Source of the DNA: Candidatus Heimdallarchaeota archaeon
Lineage (GTDB): Archaea > Asgardarchaeota > Heimdallarchaeia > JABLTI01
Length of the DNA stretch: 64,000 nt
Direction: 5' to 3'
NCBI GenBank assembly: GCA_019056785.1
Contig: DXJV01000068.1
Coordinates: 32,001 to 96,000 of the forward strand
The notes under the pieces are model-generated. The model was given only the letters and a program-made list of their open reading frames with translations. It did no database searches and was not told the DNA's origin. Shown here piece by piece: positions 1 to 64,000 of the stretch. Position 1 is the stretch's first letter. Each line of letters opens with the position of its first letter. Both the position numbers and the translations under genes were made by a program.

Positions 1-230
1 GTATTCTCCCTTACAAGTTCTTTCATTCGCTCAATAAGTTCGGGGAAGTTCTGCTGCAAGAATTCAATTGTATGCCCGGTGAGATTGAAACAAACAGTTC
101 CGTCACGCCATTCCTCTAAGGCGGCGATCATTGGTTCGTATGATTTTTCCACGACGACCGGCAGCTTCTTTCGTGGAATTTCTGCATAATCAGCATTCCA
201 ATGTAGAATAACACTTACATTTTCGGTCAA
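1..230 (-). CDS. Glycoside hydrolase family 57 protein (alpha-galactosidase-like), 5' part; runs off window edge
   Basis: Not in ORF track. Manual translation from TTG at 230: MTENVSVILHWNADYAEIPRKKLPVVVEKSYEPMIAALEEW...FNLTGHTIEFL, resembling the GH57 N-terminus (HxNxxYAEIP...NITG). Start overlaps the MFS stop (TTGA). Confidence 0.75.
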   Translation of the reverse strand, partial: MTENVSVILHWNADYAEIPRKKLPVVVEKSYEPMIAALEEWRDGTVCFNLTGHTIEFLQQNFPELIERMKELVREN

Positions 231-1744
231 GTATTTCCCTCCTTTTCTTTCAATTCACTTTCTGTTGTCATTACTGTGGTATTCTCACTTTCTTGCAATT
301 CTATTCTCCTTCGCATCAATTTATCTTTCGCAGCATCTCTATCTTTTGGATAGGTAAAGTAAATAAAGGAATAAAATAAAAGGCAGATAACCCACGGAAC
401 AACAGTAGCAATAAGCATTGCATAACTTAACGCATAGACATTATTGACTGTTCCTGAAATTGTTGCATTTGCATTTTTATCATAGCCAAATAAATGATCT
501 GCGATAAGTCCAACAATTAATGTCCCAGTTGCAGCAACGCTTCCTTCGAATAATCGGTCGACAGAGAATGCCGTTCCCCGAATTTCAGGTTCAAATAATT
601 CACTGAATATCGGATTATTAGTTGCTGGTGCACTCCAACTTATCAAAAAGCCGGTGAGGATACCAAGAATAATGAAGATAAAGAGTGTTGTTGTTGGTGG
701 AATGATTCCTTGTGAAACGTATTTTGGAACGATCAGGAATTTTGGAATTATCAAGAAAAGAATAAACATCATTGGTATCCCGGAAAAGACCGAAAATTGT
801 GCAATAAGAATACGCCCTTTGTTTGGCCATTTCTTCTCTGCCTTGTCGCCGATCACACCTCCAAAGAGGTTGCCAAAAGCAGCCCCGATGGCAACAACCG
901 CAAAAGCAATTCCCGCCATAAAGCTATCTATTCCCATTGTTTCTAACCACAGAATCATAAATAAGATAGAATTCCAGGGAATTGACCCGGCAACGCCTTG
1001 AGCAACGATTAACATGAAGGTTTTATTTGATAAAATGGTGCCAAAGTCTTTGAACCTGAATTTCCTTCGCTTTTCTTCTGTGATGATTCCCAACTCATCT
1101 GAGAGACCTCTTTGAGGATTCTTCCCGAAAATTAATACAAAAACCCCCAGAAGAAGGCTTAGAATGCCCAACGAAACAAGCACGACCCGCCACCCTTCAA
1201 AGCCAAGAACGGTTTTATCTCCCAAGAGTGTCGCATAAAGTGTTCCTACAATAGCTCCAAGCACCGTTGTGAGTCCGAGCATTCCAAAAGCTCTCCCCCT
1301 TTTTGATTGGGGGAAATAATCAGCTATTAATGATTGGGAGGTGGGAACAATAACTGCAAGGCCTATACCTGTCAGAGCGCGAACACTCATTATCCCGGCA
1401 AAAGAATTCAACGTGCCTAAAATGATGGTAAGGCTACCCCAAATGAAGCAACCGATAGCTAAAATCAATTTTCGCGAGAATCGGTCAGAGAGCCATCCCC
1501 AAAAGGGGCTGCTTATGGCTTGTAGCAATGCTCGGGCGGTTGTGATACTTCCCATACTTGTAGCGTCACTTAATCCCAGAGAGGTAGCTATGGGGTTATA
1601 CATTGATGACAATACTTGTCCATCAGCTTGATCGATTATGTTTGCAGTATTAATCAAAGCTTGAGTGGCCGTTCTCTCCCGTTTCAATCTTTTTTCTTGT
1701 TCGGATAAAGTTTGTTTTATTTTACTATCATCATCGCTTGTCAT
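227..1744 (-). CDS. MFS transporter (probably sugar uptake, coupled to GH57)
   Basis: About 12 TM segments, MFS motif A GWLSDRFSRK, IADYFPQSKRGRAFG. Confidence 0.9.
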   Translation of the reverse strand: MTSDDDSKIKQTLSEQEKRLKRERTATQALINTANIIDQADGQVLSSMYNPIATSLGLSDATSMGSITTARALLQAISSPFWGWLSDRFSRKLILAIGCFIWGSLTIILGTLNSFAGIMSVRALTGIGLAVIVPTSQSLIADYFPQSKRGRAFGMLGLTTVLGAIVGTLYATLLGDKTVLGFEGWRVVLVSLGILSLLLGVFVLIFGKNPQRGLSDELGIITEEKRRKFRFKDFGTILSNKTFMLIVAQGVAGSIPWNSILFMILWLETMGIDSFMAGIAFAVVAIGAAFGNLFGGVIGDKAEKKWPNKGRILIAQFSVFSGIPMMFILFLIIPKFLIVPKYVSQGIIPPTTTLFIFIILGILTGFLISWSAPATNNPIFSELFEPEIRGTAFSVDRLFEGSVAATGTLIVGLIADHLFGYDKNANATISGTVNNVYALSYAMLIATVVPWVICLLFYSFIYFTYPKDRDAAKDKLMRRRIELQESENTTVMTTESELKEKEGNT

Positions 1745-2826: not shown

Positions 2827-3840
2827 TTACAACTTATCTTCTCGTAAATCAATAATCGCTTCTGCATCAGGTCCTGTGCCGATCAAGGTTACTGGTATAT
2901 TTGTTTCTCGTTCAATATTTGCAATGAACTCTAGTGCTGCGGGGGAAAGCTCTTCCTTCTTTGTTGCATTTGCTACCTCTGGAAAAACGATGTCCAATTT
3001 TGTAAGAGCGATTTGTGTTGCACCATTTAATCTTACAGCCTTCCTCGCAATTTCAAAGTCAATCGGCGCAGCTCGTCGAGCACGCCCAGTCACAGTACCA
3101 AATTCCATCCAACCCTTCTTTTTCATTTCCTCTTCGGAGAGTGTTCCTGGCATTGGTCCTTCTCCAACTCGAGTCATGAAGGCTTTAAAGACGGCAATTA
3201 CCTCATCAACTTTTGTTGGACCAATACCGACATCTGCACAAATTTGCGAAGCAGAGACATCTTTACTTGTCACATAGGGATAAGTCCCATGAAAAAGAGA
3301 GAGCATTGTCCCCTGGGTTCCTTCCAGTAAAACATTTTTTCCGGCAGCAATTGCTTCATTTATTTCTTTAGAGACATCTGTAAGATAGGGGGTTAATTCA
3401 GGGATTTCTTTTGCAAGGCGTAAGGTTCTTCGTGCTCTTGCTTCATTCGCCGGTCCGCAGCCGGTCCCTGTGCTACCGATTTTTTTACTGAGATGCTTAT
3501 CATGTTGATCCTTTTCTTTATGCTCTTTCTCAATAATACCTGCTTGAAAGTCCACTCCAATACGGTCCTTACAACCTGTGAGTTCTACTTCACGCAGAAA
3601 AATCTCCGGGTCAACTAAAACGCCCGCACCGATGAGTAATCGTGACTTTTCACTTGTAAACCCACTGGGGATCATTCGCAAACCGTATTTTTTCCCTTGA
3701 TAGACCACAGTATGGCCGGCATTTGTGCCGACACCACCGCGAGCAATGATTGCGGGATGTTCGTGATACGCAATATAGCTGATAATCTTTCCTTTACCTT
3801 CATCGCCCCAAAAAGCGCCAATAATAATTGTTGTTGTCAT
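2827..3840 (-). CDS. purA: Adenylosuccinate synthetase (short archaeal type)
   Basis: GAFWGDEGKGK, NAGHT, LEGTQG, GTVTGRARR, TKLD motifs; 337 aa. Confidence 0.97.
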   Translation of the reverse strand: MTTTIIIGAFWGDEGKGKIISYIAYHEHPAIIARGGVGTNAGHTVVYQGKKYGLRMIPSGFTSEKSRLLIGAGVLVDPEIFLREVELTGCKDRIGVDFQAGIIEKEHKEKDQHDKHLSKKIGSTGTGCGPANEARARRTLRLAKEIPELTPYLTDVSKEINEAIAAGKNVLLEGTQGTMLSLFHGTYPYVTSKDVSASQICADVGIGPTKVDEVIAVFKAFMTRVGEGPMPGTLSEEEMKKKGWMEFGTVTGRARRAAPIDFEIARKAVRLNGATQIALTKLDIVFPEVANATKKEELSPAALEFIANIERETNIPVTLIGTGPDAEAIIDLREDKL

Positions 3841-4110
3841 AGTTCTCGTGAGAAAAGCTCTCCTTTTTTAATAAAGTCCTATTGTTAACATCAATGTGAT
3901 AATCCTTTGCAATTGTGCTTCTCGAAGTCTCCAGTAGAAATCCTTACGAAAAAATTGATTTATAGCGAAAGATTAATAATCAGTTGATGGTGGTAAAGAT
4001 TATTTAAAGAGTAAGCGAGTTTGATACCGGTCTTCCCGAACTGCAATTCTCCATGCTTTTCTCGCGAACCTCGATAAAAGAATTGTTAAACAAATATGTG
4101 TGTGAACAAA

Positions 4111-5559
4111 ATGGTTGAAATTATCCCTAAAAAAGTTGCAAAATATATCTATGAAATACCGGCCTCTACTCGGAATTACATGAAAGTTCCTGTGAAAATT
4201 TTTGCAAATGAAAGTATAATTAAAGCTATGGAGCAAAAAATGTTTCTCCAAGCAACCCATGTCGCTTGGTTGCCAGGCATTTACAAACATTCCCTCGTGT
4301 TGCCTGATGGGCACATGGGCTATGGATTTCCCATAGGTGGAGTCGCTGCCACGGATTACAACGAAGGAGTAGTAAGTCCTGGGGGCGTTGGTTATGATAT
4401 TAATTGTGGTGTAAGGTTACTGCGAACGAACATGAAAAAAGAAGACATTATCCCCCACGCAAAAGAGCTTACTGAACGGCTCTTTAAGAATATCCCCGCA
4501 GGTCTGGGATCAAAAGCAAAAATCCATCTTAACCGCTCAGAACTAGATGAACTGTTAACAGAAGGTGCAAAGTATTGTGTAAAACGAGGACTCGGCTGGG
4601 AAGAAGATCTTGAACACTGCGAAGAAAATGGTGCCTTGGCAAATGCTGACCCTGAAAAAGTCTCTGCAAAAGCCATCTCAAGGGGGATGCCTCAAGCGGG
4701 TAGCTTAGGAAGTGGTAACCATTTCCTTGAAATACAATTCGTTGACAAAATTTATGACCCCACGCTTGCAAAGGCGATGGGCATTTATGAAGAGAATCAA
4801 GTTATGATTATGATTCATACTGGGAGTCGAGGTTTAGGTCATCAAATCTGTGGCGACTATTTGCGAAAACTCGAACAACAAATGCCAAAATACAATCTTA
4901 CGCCTCCTGATCGTCAACTAGCTTGCGTACCAACACAAAGTGAAGAGGGGCAGGATTATTTGAAAGCCATGGCTTGTGGTGCAAACTTTGCTTGGGGGAA
5001 CAGACAAATGATCTTACATTGGGTACGAGAAACATTTGAACAAAAATTCAAACAATCAGCAGAAGACCTTGATATGCATTTAATTTATGATGTAGCACAT
5101 AACATCGCTAAAATAGAAGAACACGATATCGATGGGAAAAGACGAAAAGTAGTTACTCACCGAAAAGGAGCAACTCGAGCTTTCCCCGCAAATCACCCTG
5201 CAGTGCCAAAAGCATATCAAACTATTGGTCAACCTGTCATCCTCCCAGGTAGTATGGGTACAGCATCCTATGTACTTATTGGTCAACCAAAAGGAATGGA
5301 AGCAAGCTTTGGTAGCACTGCACATGGTGCTGGCCGAGTGTTAAGCCGTTCTGCCGCGCTCAAACGCTTCTGGGGCGATAAGGTCAGGTCCGAACTTAAA
5401 GGGCAAGGCATAGAAGTTAAATCTGCACATCCAAAAATCTTGGCTGAAGAGGCTCCGGGCGTCTACAAGGACATCGATGCTGTTGCAGAAGTCAGCGATA
5501 GTGTTGGTATCGGAAAAAGAGTGGCCCGATTAAAACCCATTGCTGTTGTTAAAGGTTAA
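4111..5559 (+). CDS. rtcB: RNA-splicing ligase RtcB
   Basis: PDGHMGYGFPIGGV, GYDINCG, GSGNHFLE, HTGSRG, HRKGATRA, HGAGR motifs; ATG at 4111 preferred over 4096; no intein-size insertion. Confidence 0.97.
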   Translation: MVEIIPKKVAKYIYEIPASTRNYMKVPVKIFANESIIKAMEQKMFLQATHVAWLPGIYKHSLVLPDGHMGYGFPIGGVAATDYNEGVVSPGGVGYDINCGVRLLRTNMKKEDIIPHAKELTERLFKNIPAGLGSKAKIHLNRSELDELLTEGAKYCVKRGLGWEEDLEHCEENGALANADPEKVSAKAISRGMPQAGSLGSGNHFLEIQFVDKIYDPTLAKAMGIYEENQVMIMIHTGSRGLGHQICGDYLRKLEQQMPKYNLTPPDRQLACVPTQSEEGQDYLKAMACGANFAWGNRQMILHWVRETFEQKFKQSAEDLDMHLIYDVAHNIAKIEEHDIDGKRRKVVTHRKGATRAFPANHPAVPKAYQTIGQPVILPGSMGTASYVLIGQPKGMEASFGSTAHGAGRVLSRSAALKRFWGDKVRSELKGQGIEVKSAHPKILAEEAPGVYKDIDAVAEVSDSVGIGKRVARLKPIAVVKG

Positions 5560-5670
5560 GTTCTTCCCCTCTTTTTTTCTCTTTTTTCCGGCGATTTGTA
5601 CAACATTCAACATAATTTTATTAGTAAAAAAATTTTTAATAGTGGACTATTTTTGAAAATACGACTGCAA

Positions 5671-7065
5671 ATGTTACAACGGAATCAATTAAAACTGCTA
5701 ATGCCTATAAATATTTATCATACGATGGCGCATATTTTCCCGTATTTTTTGCCCATTTTGTGTCAAGTAATTCGTGATGAGGTAGACTTTCTCAATTATA
5801 CTCGTGCCGGCATAATTGCTATGGTGAGTATTGTTGTAATGATTCCTTCCACCATTGTTTTAGGGGTTGTAGGGGACAAAATCCGCAAATGGCGTTTAGA
5901 GCTGATCGCTGTGGGGTTTTTGATCATTGTCTCTCATACTTTCATTATTTATGTTGCCAATTCATTTGCAGTTTTAATAGTCGCAGCTGTGGTTGCAGGT
6001 TTAGGTGCGTCCATTTTTCATCCAATTGCTTTGCCATTGCTTTCACAAGAGTTTGGTGCAGATCGGAATGTTGCTCATAGTATCAACCTCATTTTTGGGA
6101 CATTCGGCTCGATCACCACACCAATAATGACCATTGGATTGTCAAGTTGGTTGGGATGGAGGACCACAACATTAATCCTGGGTATTTTTGGTTTGCTTGT
6201 TGCTCCGATTCTAATAACAACCTCACTGCTAACAAAAAAATACCTGGTTTACACCCCACAAAAAGAGATTATTACAAATGAAGATGTGATCCCAATAGAT
6301 ACAAAGGAGAAAAAACGTACAAGAAAACCCCTTCTAAGCTTCATTTCCGGACCATTTATTGCGCTTGTTTTTGTGCTGGTATTGCGAAGTGGGATTTTTA
6401 GGATTATGAATACTTTCACCTCATTCATCTTTGAGGATCGCTTTGGTGCATCTGAGTTTCACTCTGCAATGATCATGTCTCTTGTTCTTGGCTCCGGAGG
6501 CGTTGCAGCACTTATAAGCGGATTTGTGTCCAAGAAAAAAGGAAGTCTTAAAACATTTCTCTTTTCGATGGGAGCGACGGTTTTGGCATCCATTGCCGTC
6601 GTAATTTTTGTAGGGACAATGGACTTGGCAAACCTTCAAATAAATACTGGCTTACTGGTGGTTGCAATTCTCCTCTTTGTTTTCCTCTCTACATCATTCT
6701 ATTTTTCCAATCCCTCAGCAAATTCCTTACAGGCAGAGATAATTCCCCTCGAAATCCTCGGGACCGTTTATGGTATTATTGTCGCCATAATGACTGGCTT
6801 CTCGGCTGTTATTCCGGTTATTTTTGGTGCAATTGTCGACCAGGGGTATTCGCTTCCTTATGAATACTTGTTACCAATCATTCTCTCTCTCATACCATTT
6901 TTATTGTTAATTTATATGAAATCTAAGATCGGATTAAAGACGCCCGATCAAGTGGAGAAGGAACGACTCGAAAAAACGAATGCTCTCTTAGAAGCCATTG
7001 AGAAGAGAAAAAAAGGAGAAACACTCAACCAAAAAATTCAAACAGAATCAAACTCGCAGCCATAA
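5671..7065 (+). CDS. MFS transporter
   Basis: About 12 TM segments, GASIFHP motif; ATG at 5671 is the likely start (ORF opens at 5596). Confidence 0.85.
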   Translation: MLQRNQLKLLMPINIYHTMAHIFPYFLPILCQVIRDEVDFLNYTRAGIIAMVSIVVMIPSTIVLGVVGDKIRKWRLELIAVGFLIIVSHTFIIYVANSFAVLIVAAVVAGLGASIFHPIALPLLSQEFGADRNVAHSINLIFGTFGSITTPIMTIGLSSWLGWRTTTLILGIFGLLVAPILITTSLLTKKYLVYTPQKEIITNEDVIPIDTKEKKRTRKPLLSFISGPFIALVFVLVLRSGIFRIMNTFTSFIFEDRFGASEFHSAMIMSLVLGSGGVAALISGFVSKKKGSLKTFLFSMGATVLASIAVVIFVGTMDLANLQINTGLLVVAILLFVFLSTSFYFSNPSANSLQAEIIPLEILGTVYGIIVAIMTGFSAVIPVIFGAIVDQGYSLPYEYLLPIILSLIPFLLLIYMKSKIGLKTPDQVEKERLEKTNALLEAIEKRKKGETLNQKIQTESNSQP

Positions 7066-62305: not shown

Positions 62306-63030
62306 TGGCGTAAAATCTATTGCTAGATAACAATCTGGTTATCGTTAGAAATCAAGATCCTTTGAATTTGGTGAATCTCGAGTTTTTGCTCTTAATGGTG
62401 TAGATATGGAGGTAAAAAAAAGGAGAGTTTGTGGTTATTCTTGGACCAAGTGGTGTAGGTAAAACAACTCTTCTAAACATGATTGGGGGTATTGATCTTC
62501 CAACGGAAGGGGAAGTTATTGTTGATGATGAACTAATAACTAGTTATAACCTCGAGGCGCTAAATGCTTATAGAAGGAATGATGTGGAGTAGGTGTTTCA
62601 ATTCTTTAATATTGTAGCAAGCCTTCGCGCCTGGGAAAATGTGGGGCTTGCTTTGGAGTTTCAAGGAAAATTGAAGCAAGCAGAAATAAAAGAACAAGCG
62701 TTTAAAATTCTGAAAAAAGTAGGATTAGAAGGAAAAGAAGACCGCTTCCCTAGCCAATTGTCTGGGGGGGAACAACAACGAGTAGCAATTGCTCGAGCGT
62801 TAATCAAGAAGCCAAAGATTGTGGTGGCTGACGAACCCACCGGCAACCTCGACTACTTAACCGGGCAGAGCGTTGCAGAATTAATGCGGGATCTTAATCG
62901 GCAAGAAGGGGTAACCTTTATTGTGGTTTCTCATGATTCAAACATCACAAAGTATGCAGATAGAGTTTTTCATCTTCGCATGGGTAAAATTGAGAGAATT
63001 GATGACCAATCGCAAAAAAATACCCCCTAA
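62306..63030 (+). pseudogene. LolD/MacB-type ABC ATPase pseudogene
   Basis: [14 protein letters not shown], extra A in the A8 run (62414-62421), [16 protein letters not shown], in-frame TAG at 62590-62592, then [17 protein letters not shown]; early TAA and another indel near the start. Confidence 0.85.
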
Positions 63031-63092: not shown

Positions 63093-64000
63093 CTATCGCC
63101 AATAAAAGTACATTGTTTTTGCTTTTTTCGGGAGTTCTATCCCAGACCAGTTAAAAAGATCGATCCCCAATTTTTTCTTAAAGAAAATGAAATTTGCTTT
63201 CACAAAAGGTTTGGCATTAAAATAAGGGATGTATGGTGTTTGCAAGCCTTTCCAACCTCTTTTAACTGCCTCTTGGGAGAGGAAGTTTGCCAGATCTCTT
63301 ATCTCTTTTTTCCTCAATTTATAAACATGTGCACTATCTAACCAGCCAAAGGGTATCTTTTTGCCAAATCCCGCAAGTAGAAATTCCCATGCAAGGATAT
63401 AGCCATCAACTTGACCATCTGTGTTTTCATGGATAACACAAAGAACATTCGGATTACCCAGCATCCATTTTAGAACTTCTTTCTCAGGAATAATAGAAAT
63501 GTCAGCACGCGCCACAAGCTCTTTTGTTAGGTTAAAGATTTCCTCAAAATCGTCAGGTTGGTAAAGTCGGAACACTGGCGAGTGCACCGGCTTGATTTTC
63601 TCTTTCAATTTAAAAACTAATTTTTCATACCATTTGACTTTCACTACTTGTGCGGCTGCTTCTGTGTCAAAAATACGAATCACATATTTATTTAAAGAAA
63701 CTAATCGCATAAGGGGGATGTTTGTCTCTCGTGCTACAGATTGTGAAGTATCTATTCCGTGTTGTTCGGGCTCATGAAAGGAAAAACCAGCTTCATAACC
63801 TGCTTGTTGCCCAAGCTCCAGCATTTTTTCCCCCATTGTTTTAGCCAAACCTTGCTTTTGATGTTTGGGGTGAACACAAAGCCAGGAGGGAATTGCGCTT
63901 TTGTAAACTTTCCCGTCAATTGAAAGGTTCTTATTAATCGTTCCTAAAAAACCAACTATTTCATTAGTTGGCTTATAAATTGCTCGTACAAAGAGTTCGC
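63093..64000 (-). CDS. Tandem-GNAT acyltransferase resembling N-myristoyltransferase (5' end outside window)
   Basis: Frame stays open to the window edge: ...IVGFLGTINKNLSIDGKVYKSAIPSWLCVHPKHQKQGLA...ENTDGQVDGY...LFNW. Confidence 0.7.
   Translation of the reverse strand, partial: ELFVRAIYKPTNEIVGFLGTINKNLSIDGKVYKSAIPSWLCVHPKHQKQGLAKTMGEKMLELGQQAGYEAGFSFHEPEQHGIDTSQSVARETNIPLMRLVSLNKYVIRIFDTEAAAQVVKVKWYEKLVFKLKEKIKPVHSPVFRLYQPDDFEEIFNLTKELVARADISIIPEKEVLKWMLGNPNVLCVIHENTDGQVDGYILAWEFLLAGFGKKIPFGWLDSAHVYKLRKKEIRDLANFLSQEAVKRGWKGLQTPYIPYFNAKPFVKANFIFFKKKLGIDLFNWSGIELPKKAKTMYFYWR

Follow-up and report, generated by a model that had tools for sequence, protein, structure and literature searches.

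A conserved family of tandem-GNAT proteins in Asgard archaea distantly homologous to eukaryotic N-myristoyltransferase

N-Myristoylation is regarded as a hallmark of eukaryotes, although where its enzyme came from is still debated. The enzyme, glycylpeptide N-tetradecanoyltransferase or N-myristoyltransferase (NMT; EC 2.3.1.97), of which human NMT1 and yeast Nmt1p are examples, combines the Pfam domains PF01233 and PF02799. According to the parts of PMC7048800 that deal with the active site of human NMT1, its Gly2 pocket consists of Tyr180, Tyr192, Asn246, Thr282, Leu495, and the carboxylate of Gln496, the last being the catalytic base, while the backbone of Phe247/Leu248 (yeast Phe170/Leu171) forms the oxyanion hole and Asp183, Asp185, and Asp471 serve substrate residue 7. 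In the same account, Asn246 and Thr282 are strictly conserved in the pocket as a “catalyst platform,” and a Tyr180Phe/Asn246Ala double variant retains 89% activity, whereas the deltaC2 and deltaC3 truncations of human NMT1 are left with 2.3% and 0.4% of kcat/Km, respectively. Here, we describe an NMT-like gene found at the end of a stretch of 64,000 nucleotides (the window) from a genome of Candidatus Heimdallarchaeota archaeon (contig DXJV01000068.1; G000:C98:32001-96000 in contig numbering). Its product is very probably a true, albeit distant, homologue of eukaryotic NMT, namely, a cytosolic enzyme of 364 amino acids (aa) made of two fused GNAT lobes and belonging to a prokaryotic “NMT-like” family, and it is unlikely to be a eukaryotic-type glycylpeptide myristoyltransferase.

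The gene lies on the minus strand at positions 63093 to 64000 of the window, where its frame is still open at the edge (63093..63998 in the list of open reading frames [ORFs], 301 aa, 5'-open). The ORF as called (63093..63848, 251 aa, TTG start) is only the 3' part of this longer frame, and the preliminary description of the sequence was right in extending it to the edge. On the contig, the gene is complete, with an ATG start, 364 codons, and no internal stops (protein P0002), and it spans 63093..64187 in window numbering, past the window edge. The window thus carries residues 64 to 364, in the form of the 3' 908 bases of the gene (two bases of codon 63, followed by codons 64 to 364 and by TAG as the stop codon at 63093-63095). 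It is single copy in the source genome (E ≤ 0.001). The strings on which the preliminary description had based a likeness to NMT (IVGFLGTI, WLCVHPKHQKQGLA, FRLYQPDDFEEIFNL, ENTDGQVDGY, and the terminal FVKANF…LFNW…MYFYWR before the stop) are all present in the translation, and the NMT motifs that it cited match a consensus built from 12 true NMTs (KIVGFISAIP, INFLCVHKKLRxKRL, and YYLYNWK). Its pairing of LFNW with YLYNW stood only in part: both fall in the same columns in hhalign and MAFFT alignments, but LFNW is found in close relatives only, the family consensus being LDxFNL.

For profiles, conservation, and structural modeling, we used an alignment of 54 family members (A1), and the 12 true NMTs were aligned separately (A2). 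Searched as a single sequence against the PDB with phmmer, the protein gave 13 matches, all of them NMTs and all weak (best E of 0.012). With the A1 profile (hmmsearch), the first 36 of 49 PDB matches were NMTs, with a best E value of 2.9e-13 versus 0.41 for Eis, and the alignment of the P. vivax NMT spanned profile positions 17 to 266. Among 1.84 billion representative proteins, the same profile retrieved 303 at E ≤ 1e-3, true NMTs appearing from E 3e-10. Pfam models were run on 66 of these, of which 13 were true NMTs with strong matches to both domains, and the other 53, mostly 330 to 410 aa long, included 19 above the PF01233 cut-off and 2 above that of PF02799. P0002 itself passed the PF01233 cut-off marginally (26.5 bits versus 25), with residues 9 to 118 aligned to positions 22 to 129 of the 160 in this N-terminal domain profile. 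The comparison of A1 with A2 by hhalign gave a probability of 99.6%, a score of 176, and an E value of 1.4e-23 over 313 aligned columns, which extend from residue 18 to 353 of P0002 and from 63 to 387 of a 396-aa NMT, covering both lobes in colinear order. The likeness to NMT is therefore far above chance, and the earlier proposal of a prokaryotic NMT relative colinear over both GNAT halves was borne out here and in the whole-length fold match described below.

An AlphaFold2 model derived from A1 reached a mean predicted local distance difference test (pLDDT) value of 94.1 and a predicted template modeling (TM) score of 0.91. All the PDB matches listed by Foldseek were NMTs (E about 1e-21 to 1e-20, TM score of 0.73 to 0.81, 12 to 15% identity). 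A second fold search against structure representatives, independent of Foldseek and with 50 rows shown, placed the model closest to yeast NMT (Z 31.7, root mean square deviation [rmsd] of 2.8 Å over 339 residues) and to that of C. parvum (Z 29.7, 3.0 Å, 331 residues). The best non-NMT structural match was the two-lobed MAB_4324, a tandem-repeat GNAT from Mycobacterium abscessus (PDB 7q3a; Z 23.1, 3.6 Å, 305 residues), 8.6 Z units below yeast NMT, and it was followed by Eis (Z 20.1, 5.8 Å, 295 residues) and other tandem GNATs (Z 15 to 20). Realignment of the top 999 Foldseek chains raised the values for NMTs to Z 33.0 and 2.6 Å over 340 of the 364 residues (model 1..364), so that, in the model, the two-lobed NMT topology is matched over the whole chain.

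A further likeness concerns the C terminus, where NMT places its catalytic base. Residue 364 of the model aligns with the last residue of every full-length NMT shown (human 496, yeast 455, A. fumigatus 492, L. major 421, P. vivax 410, and C. albicans 451). When the human protein is the deltaC3 truncation, whose chain finishes at 493, model residue 361 is the last one aligned, an internal control that puts residues 362 to 364 in one-to-one correspondence with human residues 494 to 496. By this modeled geometry, and by geometry only, the carboxylate of R364 would lie where the catalytic C-terminal carboxylate of NMT lies, in keeping with the expectation of the preliminary description that the chain end enters the active site. 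The position of the end is also fixed in sequence. The final W363-R364 and the TAG stop (63093..63101) close a chain whose last residue is Arg in 54 of 54 members, the preceding Trp being conserved in at least 90%, and in the MAFFT alignment all 16 Asgard rows and all 49 rows from other prokaryotes share their final column. NMTs, in contrast, have varied and mostly hydrophobic ends.

To compare individual residues, we used an alignment with yeast NMT in which index plus 33 equals the residue number (checked on F170/L171, Y103, Y115, D106, D108, and N169), together with a MAFFT L-INS-i alignment of 80 rows; the offset of 77 between human and yeast numbering is one that we infer. The N-terminal lobe (about residues 1 to 190, of which 64 to 190 lie in the window at 63618..63998, on the minus strand like the rest of the gene) is the predicted acyl coenzyme A (CoA)-binding half, delimited by matches to PF13527 (29.7 bits) and PF01233 (26.5 bits) on residues 9 to 129 and by the secondary structure of the model. 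In this lobe, Tyr180 and Tyr192 of human NMT1 correspond to F32 and F47, each conserved in at least 90% of the family, so the aromatic rings are kept and the hydroxyls lost. Asp183 corresponds to D35 (Asp in most rows) and Asp185 to the variable Q40. The stretch S101-W102-L103 (63879..63887) aligns with Asn246-Phe247-Leu248; the first position is S, A, C, or G within the family, and W102, conserved in at least 90%, would with L103 take the oxyanion role by alignment. Thr282 falls on F137, a variable hydrophobic position, in hhalign and MAFFT, and on E132 in phmmer, and no alignment gives a conserved Thr. Asp471 lies by residue count near K337/K338, the latter conserved in at least 90%, and the true NMT from which we counted is also without that Asp. 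Overall, the mapped residues indicate that the Ab-loop keeps its aromatic frame, that the Phe247/Leu248 bulge and the chain end are also retained, and that the two polar residues holding the glycine amine are not.

Two further elements of the N-terminal lobe set the family apart from NMT. One is the canonical GNAT pyrophosphate-binding loop (Q/RxxGxA, known as motif A), here Q110-K-Q-G113-L-A115 (63843..63860), with G113 and A115 conserved in at least 90%. As in NMT, the CoA loop is found in the N-terminal lobe only, but that of NMT reads RxKRLA, without Gly. The other is H138-E-P-E-Q-H-G144 (63756..63776), a family-specific conserved element (E139 in at least 90%, G144 invariant) between strand 133-138 and helix 144-155. 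NMT is gapped there, by 17 residues in hhalign and 9 or more columns in MAFFT, and has no counterpart to the helix, whereas other prokaryotic relatives carry [E/D]xGH at the same site. The C-terminal lobe (residues 206 to 364, 63096..63572) lacks the Gly-containing CoA loop and is the predicted acceptor-binding half, judging from conservation, the model, and hhalign. Its highly conserved stretches LAGFGxxxPFGWLDxxH and GWxGLQTPYIPYF, together with K338, suggest one conserved acceptor. Finally, the protein is without the N-terminal extension of NMT, and the model starts at human residue 148 or yeast residue 71.

Outside the family, features were also shared with prokaryotic proteins of about 345 to 365 aa annotated as “GNAT family N-acetyltransferase,” for example, those of Planctomycetota metagenome-assembled genomes (MAGs; loci L023 to L036) and protein P0145, the nearest outgroup (profile E 1.3e-26), labeled Sigynarchaeota. 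The A1 profile reached such proteins with E values from 1e-28 to 1e-10. Our family has all the features that define these prokaryotic NMT-like tandem GNATs, that is, the length, the last alignment column, a Gly-containing CoA loop in the N-terminal lobe only, and, behind the fifth strand, an element with acidic and His residues ([E/D]xGH in the relatives). The relatives differ in falling into separate clades with 16 to 33% identity among subgroups, in having Trp in place of Phe at the Tyr180 position, and in their chain ends, which in many of them stand at the same place and read …Y(L/F)D(x)R (e.g., …YLDxR), …YE(x)Q(I/V) (e.g., …YExQ[IV]), or …HVLWR. The HVLWR subgroup is bacterial, since all 14 of its loci in species-representative genomes come from Planctomycetota MAGs. 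In the ESM Atlas, where the relatives have TM scores of 0.81 to 0.87 to our family, bacterial clusters were the nearest by features and structure (0.87, 0.86, and 0.81), ahead of eukaryotic NMT clusters (0.81 and 0.80); the commonest phyla were Myxococcota, Aminicenantota, Acidobacteriota, and Pseudomonadota, taxa that rest on few members. The label of an archaeal NMT-like protein given in the preliminary description is thus apt for a distant relative and not for the archaeal NMT, as the protein has no PF02799 match, has lost residues of the Gly pocket, falls outside the NMT clade, and belongs to a superfamily that is also bacterial.

A search of 5.8 billion proteins recovered 117 homologues at 39 to 74% identity, the full-length ones mostly of 360 to 367 aa, annotated at the source only as “GNAT family N-acetyltransferase” or “hypothetical protein.” Organism names were attached to 31 of them, 29 of Asgard type (Heimdallarchaeota/Heimdallarchaeaceae, “Asgard group,” Lokiarchaeota/Promethearchaeota, and one Thorarchaeota), including the cultured Candidatus Lokiarchaeum ossiferum (protein P0105), and the remaining two names, Bathyarchaeia and Zixibacteria, were labels of MAGs. 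When 400 genomes of the phylum to which the window belongs were searched in six frames, 61 matched the family at E ≤ 1e-5. Strong matches were concentrated in families f1 (11 of 11 genomes), f3 (27 of 31), f19 (11 of 14), and f21 (2 of 4), several genomes having two to four copies, while f5 (0 of 12), f6 (0 of 22), and f12 (0 of 19) gave none and f20 only weak ones (2 of 135). Among the Asgard archaea, the family thus combines conservation with a patchy distribution. The 54 sequences of A1 have 20 invariant columns. Judging from the homologues recovered, the NMT-like gene is real, conserved, and maintained. As a separate observation, genomes of f20, without the family studied here, hold open frames of 414 to 456 aa with weak PF02799 matches at 11 places (E 6e-6 to 9e-4, all below the cut-off; e.g., G265:C107:2481-2720), with stops inside the match at only 1 of the 11; these may represent another NMT-like paralogue family.

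The relation to NMT was also analyzed with two trees, a quick one of 82 rows and a careful one of 69, both left unrooted because the outgroups were judged so distant that long-branch attraction was a risk. The careful tree excluded P0090 of the Asgard family, the NMT rows P0223, P0257, and P0261, and the other prokaryotic rows P0161, P0167, P0176, P0185, P0188, P0201, P0203, P0215, and P0259, most of them long branches. True NMTs formed one clade (100/100 in the careful tree, 99 in the quick tree) from which our family was excluded. Likewise, our family and the three Sigynarchaeota-type proteins each formed one clade (100/100), and these two grouped together with 97/87 support (972 of 1,000 bootstrap trees), the remaining 37 rows standing on one side of a branch supported by 86/67 (862 of 1,000). 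The tree is thus a three-way star of NMT, the Asgard clade, and the others, which neither shows nor excludes a sisterhood between NMT and the Asgard clade, since that relation depends on the position of the root. Profile-profile scores were in line with the tree. Our family is closer to NMT (score of 176) than are the prokaryotic subgroup A4 (score of 111, E 1.9e-14) and the Planctomycetota subgroup A5 (score of 119, E 5.6e-16), but it is closer still to A4 (score of 214, E 2.2e-29, probability of 99.8%).

These data bear directly on whether the protein could be a working eukaryotic-type N-myristoyltransferase acting on Asgard N-terminal glycines, as the sister or ancestor of eukaryotic NMT. 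In its fold, the aromatic positions of the Ab-loop, the bulge of the oxyanion hole, and the chain end, the protein resembles NMT, the hhalign scores put the Asgard family nearer to NMT than the two prokaryotic subgroups, and the three-way star would allow sisterhood if the root lay among the others. Nevertheless, the loss of Asn246 and Thr282, the missing NMT_C Pfam match, and the greater proximity to A4 all speak against it, as do the rarity of a split uniting this family and NMT alone (19 of 1,000 bootstrap trees) and the absence of the family from f5 and f6 of its own class. Nor does it co-occur with acyl-CoA-binding protein (PF00887), which was found in 13 of the 400 genomes, mostly in f6 (10 of 22; G057 to G077), of the same class as the source genome, and in none of the families carrying the NMT-like gene (f1, f3, f19, and f21). 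The lack of Gly2 signals in Asgard Arf relatives, as described in the available parts of the papers cited below, points in the same direction. We consider such an enzyme unlikely, and canonical glycine myristoylation, taken by itself, equally so. A related proposal, that the Asgard clade as a whole (the “DWR-ended” family plus the Sigynarchaeota-type proteins) is the sister group of NMT and already acylated protein N termini in Asgard archaea, seems to us rather doubtful.

At the other extreme, the protein might be a tandem GNAT of the Eis, MshD, or FemABX type whose likeness to NMT reflects nothing but the shared GNAT fold. Its top Pfam match is indeed to PF13527, the model that also covers the N-terminal GNAT lobe of Eis, another multi-lobed GNAT, and the fold search lists tandem GNATs, Eis and MshD included, at Z 15 to 23. 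Yet the direct comparison of NMT with Eis, which the preliminary description had named as decisive, clearly favored NMT, both in profile E value (2.9e-13 versus 0.41) and in structure (Z 31.7 to 33.0 versus 20.1; rmsd of 2.6 to 2.8 Å versus 5.8 Å). The NCBIfam equivalogs for Eis were not reached (11.1 bits versus a cut-off of 701 for NF002364 and 15.9 versus 463 for NF002369), and the modeled protein has two lobes only, whereas Eis has a third, SCP2-like domain. The alignment with MAB_4324 stops at model residue 347, leaving the chain end unmatched, and this protein was absent from the sequence-profile matches. No FemABX-type chain was seen among the 50 fold-search rows shown or in the profile matches, an absence that is no proof. 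Taken together, a mere fold resemblance is extremely improbable. Only slightly better placed, and still very improbable, is a protein that retains the NMT fold with no catalytic activity or with a structural role alone, considering that the 54 sequences show 90 to 100% conservation of G113, A115, W102, E139, G144, and the precise point at which the chain ends and that length is constant over 117 homologues.

For the distant NMT homologue that we favor, the conserved positions suggest a mechanism. The N-terminal lobe would bind acyl-CoA through the Q110xxG113xA115 loop, and the backbone of W102/L103 would polarize the thioester carbonyl. The chain end would thread back into the cleft between the lobes, bringing the R364 carboxylate beside the incoming amino group, and this carboxylate, alone or with the E139/H143 element, would take a proton from the amine, which could then attack the thioester to give an N-acylated product. 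The highly conserved C-terminal lobe would supply the acceptor site. A peptide or protein amino group is a plausible acceptor, favored by the complete NMT-like cleft with its Ab-loop and by the lack of any conserved biosynthetic neighbor. A small amine (amino acid, amino sugar, polyamine, or amino-lipid head group) is perhaps a little more plausible, given the loss of Asn246 and Thr282, the fixed charged residues R364, K338, E139, and H143, the bacterial members of the superfamily, and the small-molecule tandem GNATs that are the next-best structural relatives. Another acceptor, or none, seems somewhat unlikely.

Several observations weigh against placing this protein so close to NMT. In sequence, PF13527 (Acetyltransf_9, the Eis-type GNAT model) scores above PF01233 (29.7 versus 26.5 bits), PF02799 (NMT_C) gave no match in P0002 at E values up to 10, and in the six-frame searches it exceeded its cut-off in none of the 400 genomes, the source genome included. 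In the active site, Asn246 and Thr282 of the Gly pocket are not retained. The placement of the chain end is drawn from a predicted model, and from the first and last aligned residues only, and it could be the E139/H143 element that acts as the base, in which case the chain end would have a structural role only. In the available parts of two papers on Asgard Arf-family GTPases, these proteins show no Gly2 or recognizable myristoylation signal. Lastly, no neighbor gene is conserved, in that no neighbor family occurs at more than 6 of 21 loci (from this and 20 other genomes), so gene context is uninformative on the substrate.

Some neighbors do recur in closely related genomes, namely, a methyltransferase (6 of 21 loci), a GH20 hexosaminidase (5 of 21), an M28 peptidase (5 of 21), and a DinB_2 protein (5 of 21). 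The M28-family peptidase gene adjoins the NMT-like gene and is divergently transcribed in four genomes of genus g8 (L003 at 3596-4864 on the minus strand, L005, L006, and L022), lying farther off in L019. This pairing is suggestive of N-terminal processing beside an N-acyltransferase, within one lineage only. At its five loci, all in related genomes (L002 at 5083-6609 on the minus strand, L003, L005, L006, and L022), the gene for the GH20 beta-hexosaminidase is no more than about 3 kb from the NMT-like gene, and some tandem GNATs recovered by the fold search act as glucosamine N-acetyltransferases, which together make an amino-sugar acceptor one idea. At the locus studied here (L002), a gene for a DUF6884 protein (243 aa, 3360-4091, minus strand) is directly upstream on the same strand at a distance of 172 bases, and it is not beside the gene at the other 20 loci.

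As the gene ends in TAG and two genes close by hold in-frame TAGs, read-through of this codon was tested. TAG terminates 307 of 1,802 long frames in the source genome, and TAG-separated frame pairs (66) are fewer than those separated by TAA (139) or TGA (119). No tRNA with the anticodon CUA was present among the 14 tRNAs detected in the genome, and PylS gave no match above the cut-off. Furthermore, read-through would append about 40 residues overlapping the convergent ATP-binding cassette (ABC) gene. On these results, we rejected recoding of TAG at the end of the NMT-like gene, and the stop was taken as real. The two nearby cases lie within about 5 kb of each other. The ABC-transporter ATPase gene (window positions 62431-63030, plus strand) is split by one in-frame TAG at 62590-62592 (…RRNDVE before and VFQFFN… after it), beyond which the frame runs on for 145 codons; in such proteins, this position, in a …GFVFQ… stretch, is usually aromatic. 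The cysteine synthase (CysK/CBS-like) gene, outside the window (L002 4144-5064, minus strand; G000:C98:97143-98063), has one in-frame TAG at L002 4585-4587, where the Trp of GPEIW stands in such enzymes. Pseudogenes, assembly errors, or rare recoding are candidate causes of these two TAGs.

Judging from the model, the complete architecture of NMT, including its own chain end at the active site, would exist in prokaryotes, and, of three prokaryotic groups that were compared, the conserved Asgard family comes closest to NMT. Its presence in the cultured Lokiarchaeum ossiferum opens protein or amine acylation in Asgard archaea to bench work. A literature search, which did not extend to the supplementary tables of Asgard protein surveys, found no paper describing an Asgard NMT homologue. 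Were the Asgard clade indeed the sister group of NMT and active on protein N termini, N-terminal protein lipidation would predate the eukaryotic cell, and NMT would have arisen from such an enzyme that gave up the HEPEQHG element and the Gly in its CoA loop and acquired the Thr282 platform. An evolutionary link to eukaryotic lipidation is possible, and, even with a small-molecule acceptor, the family would be a natural outgroup for the evolution of the glycine specificity and the Thr platform of NMT.

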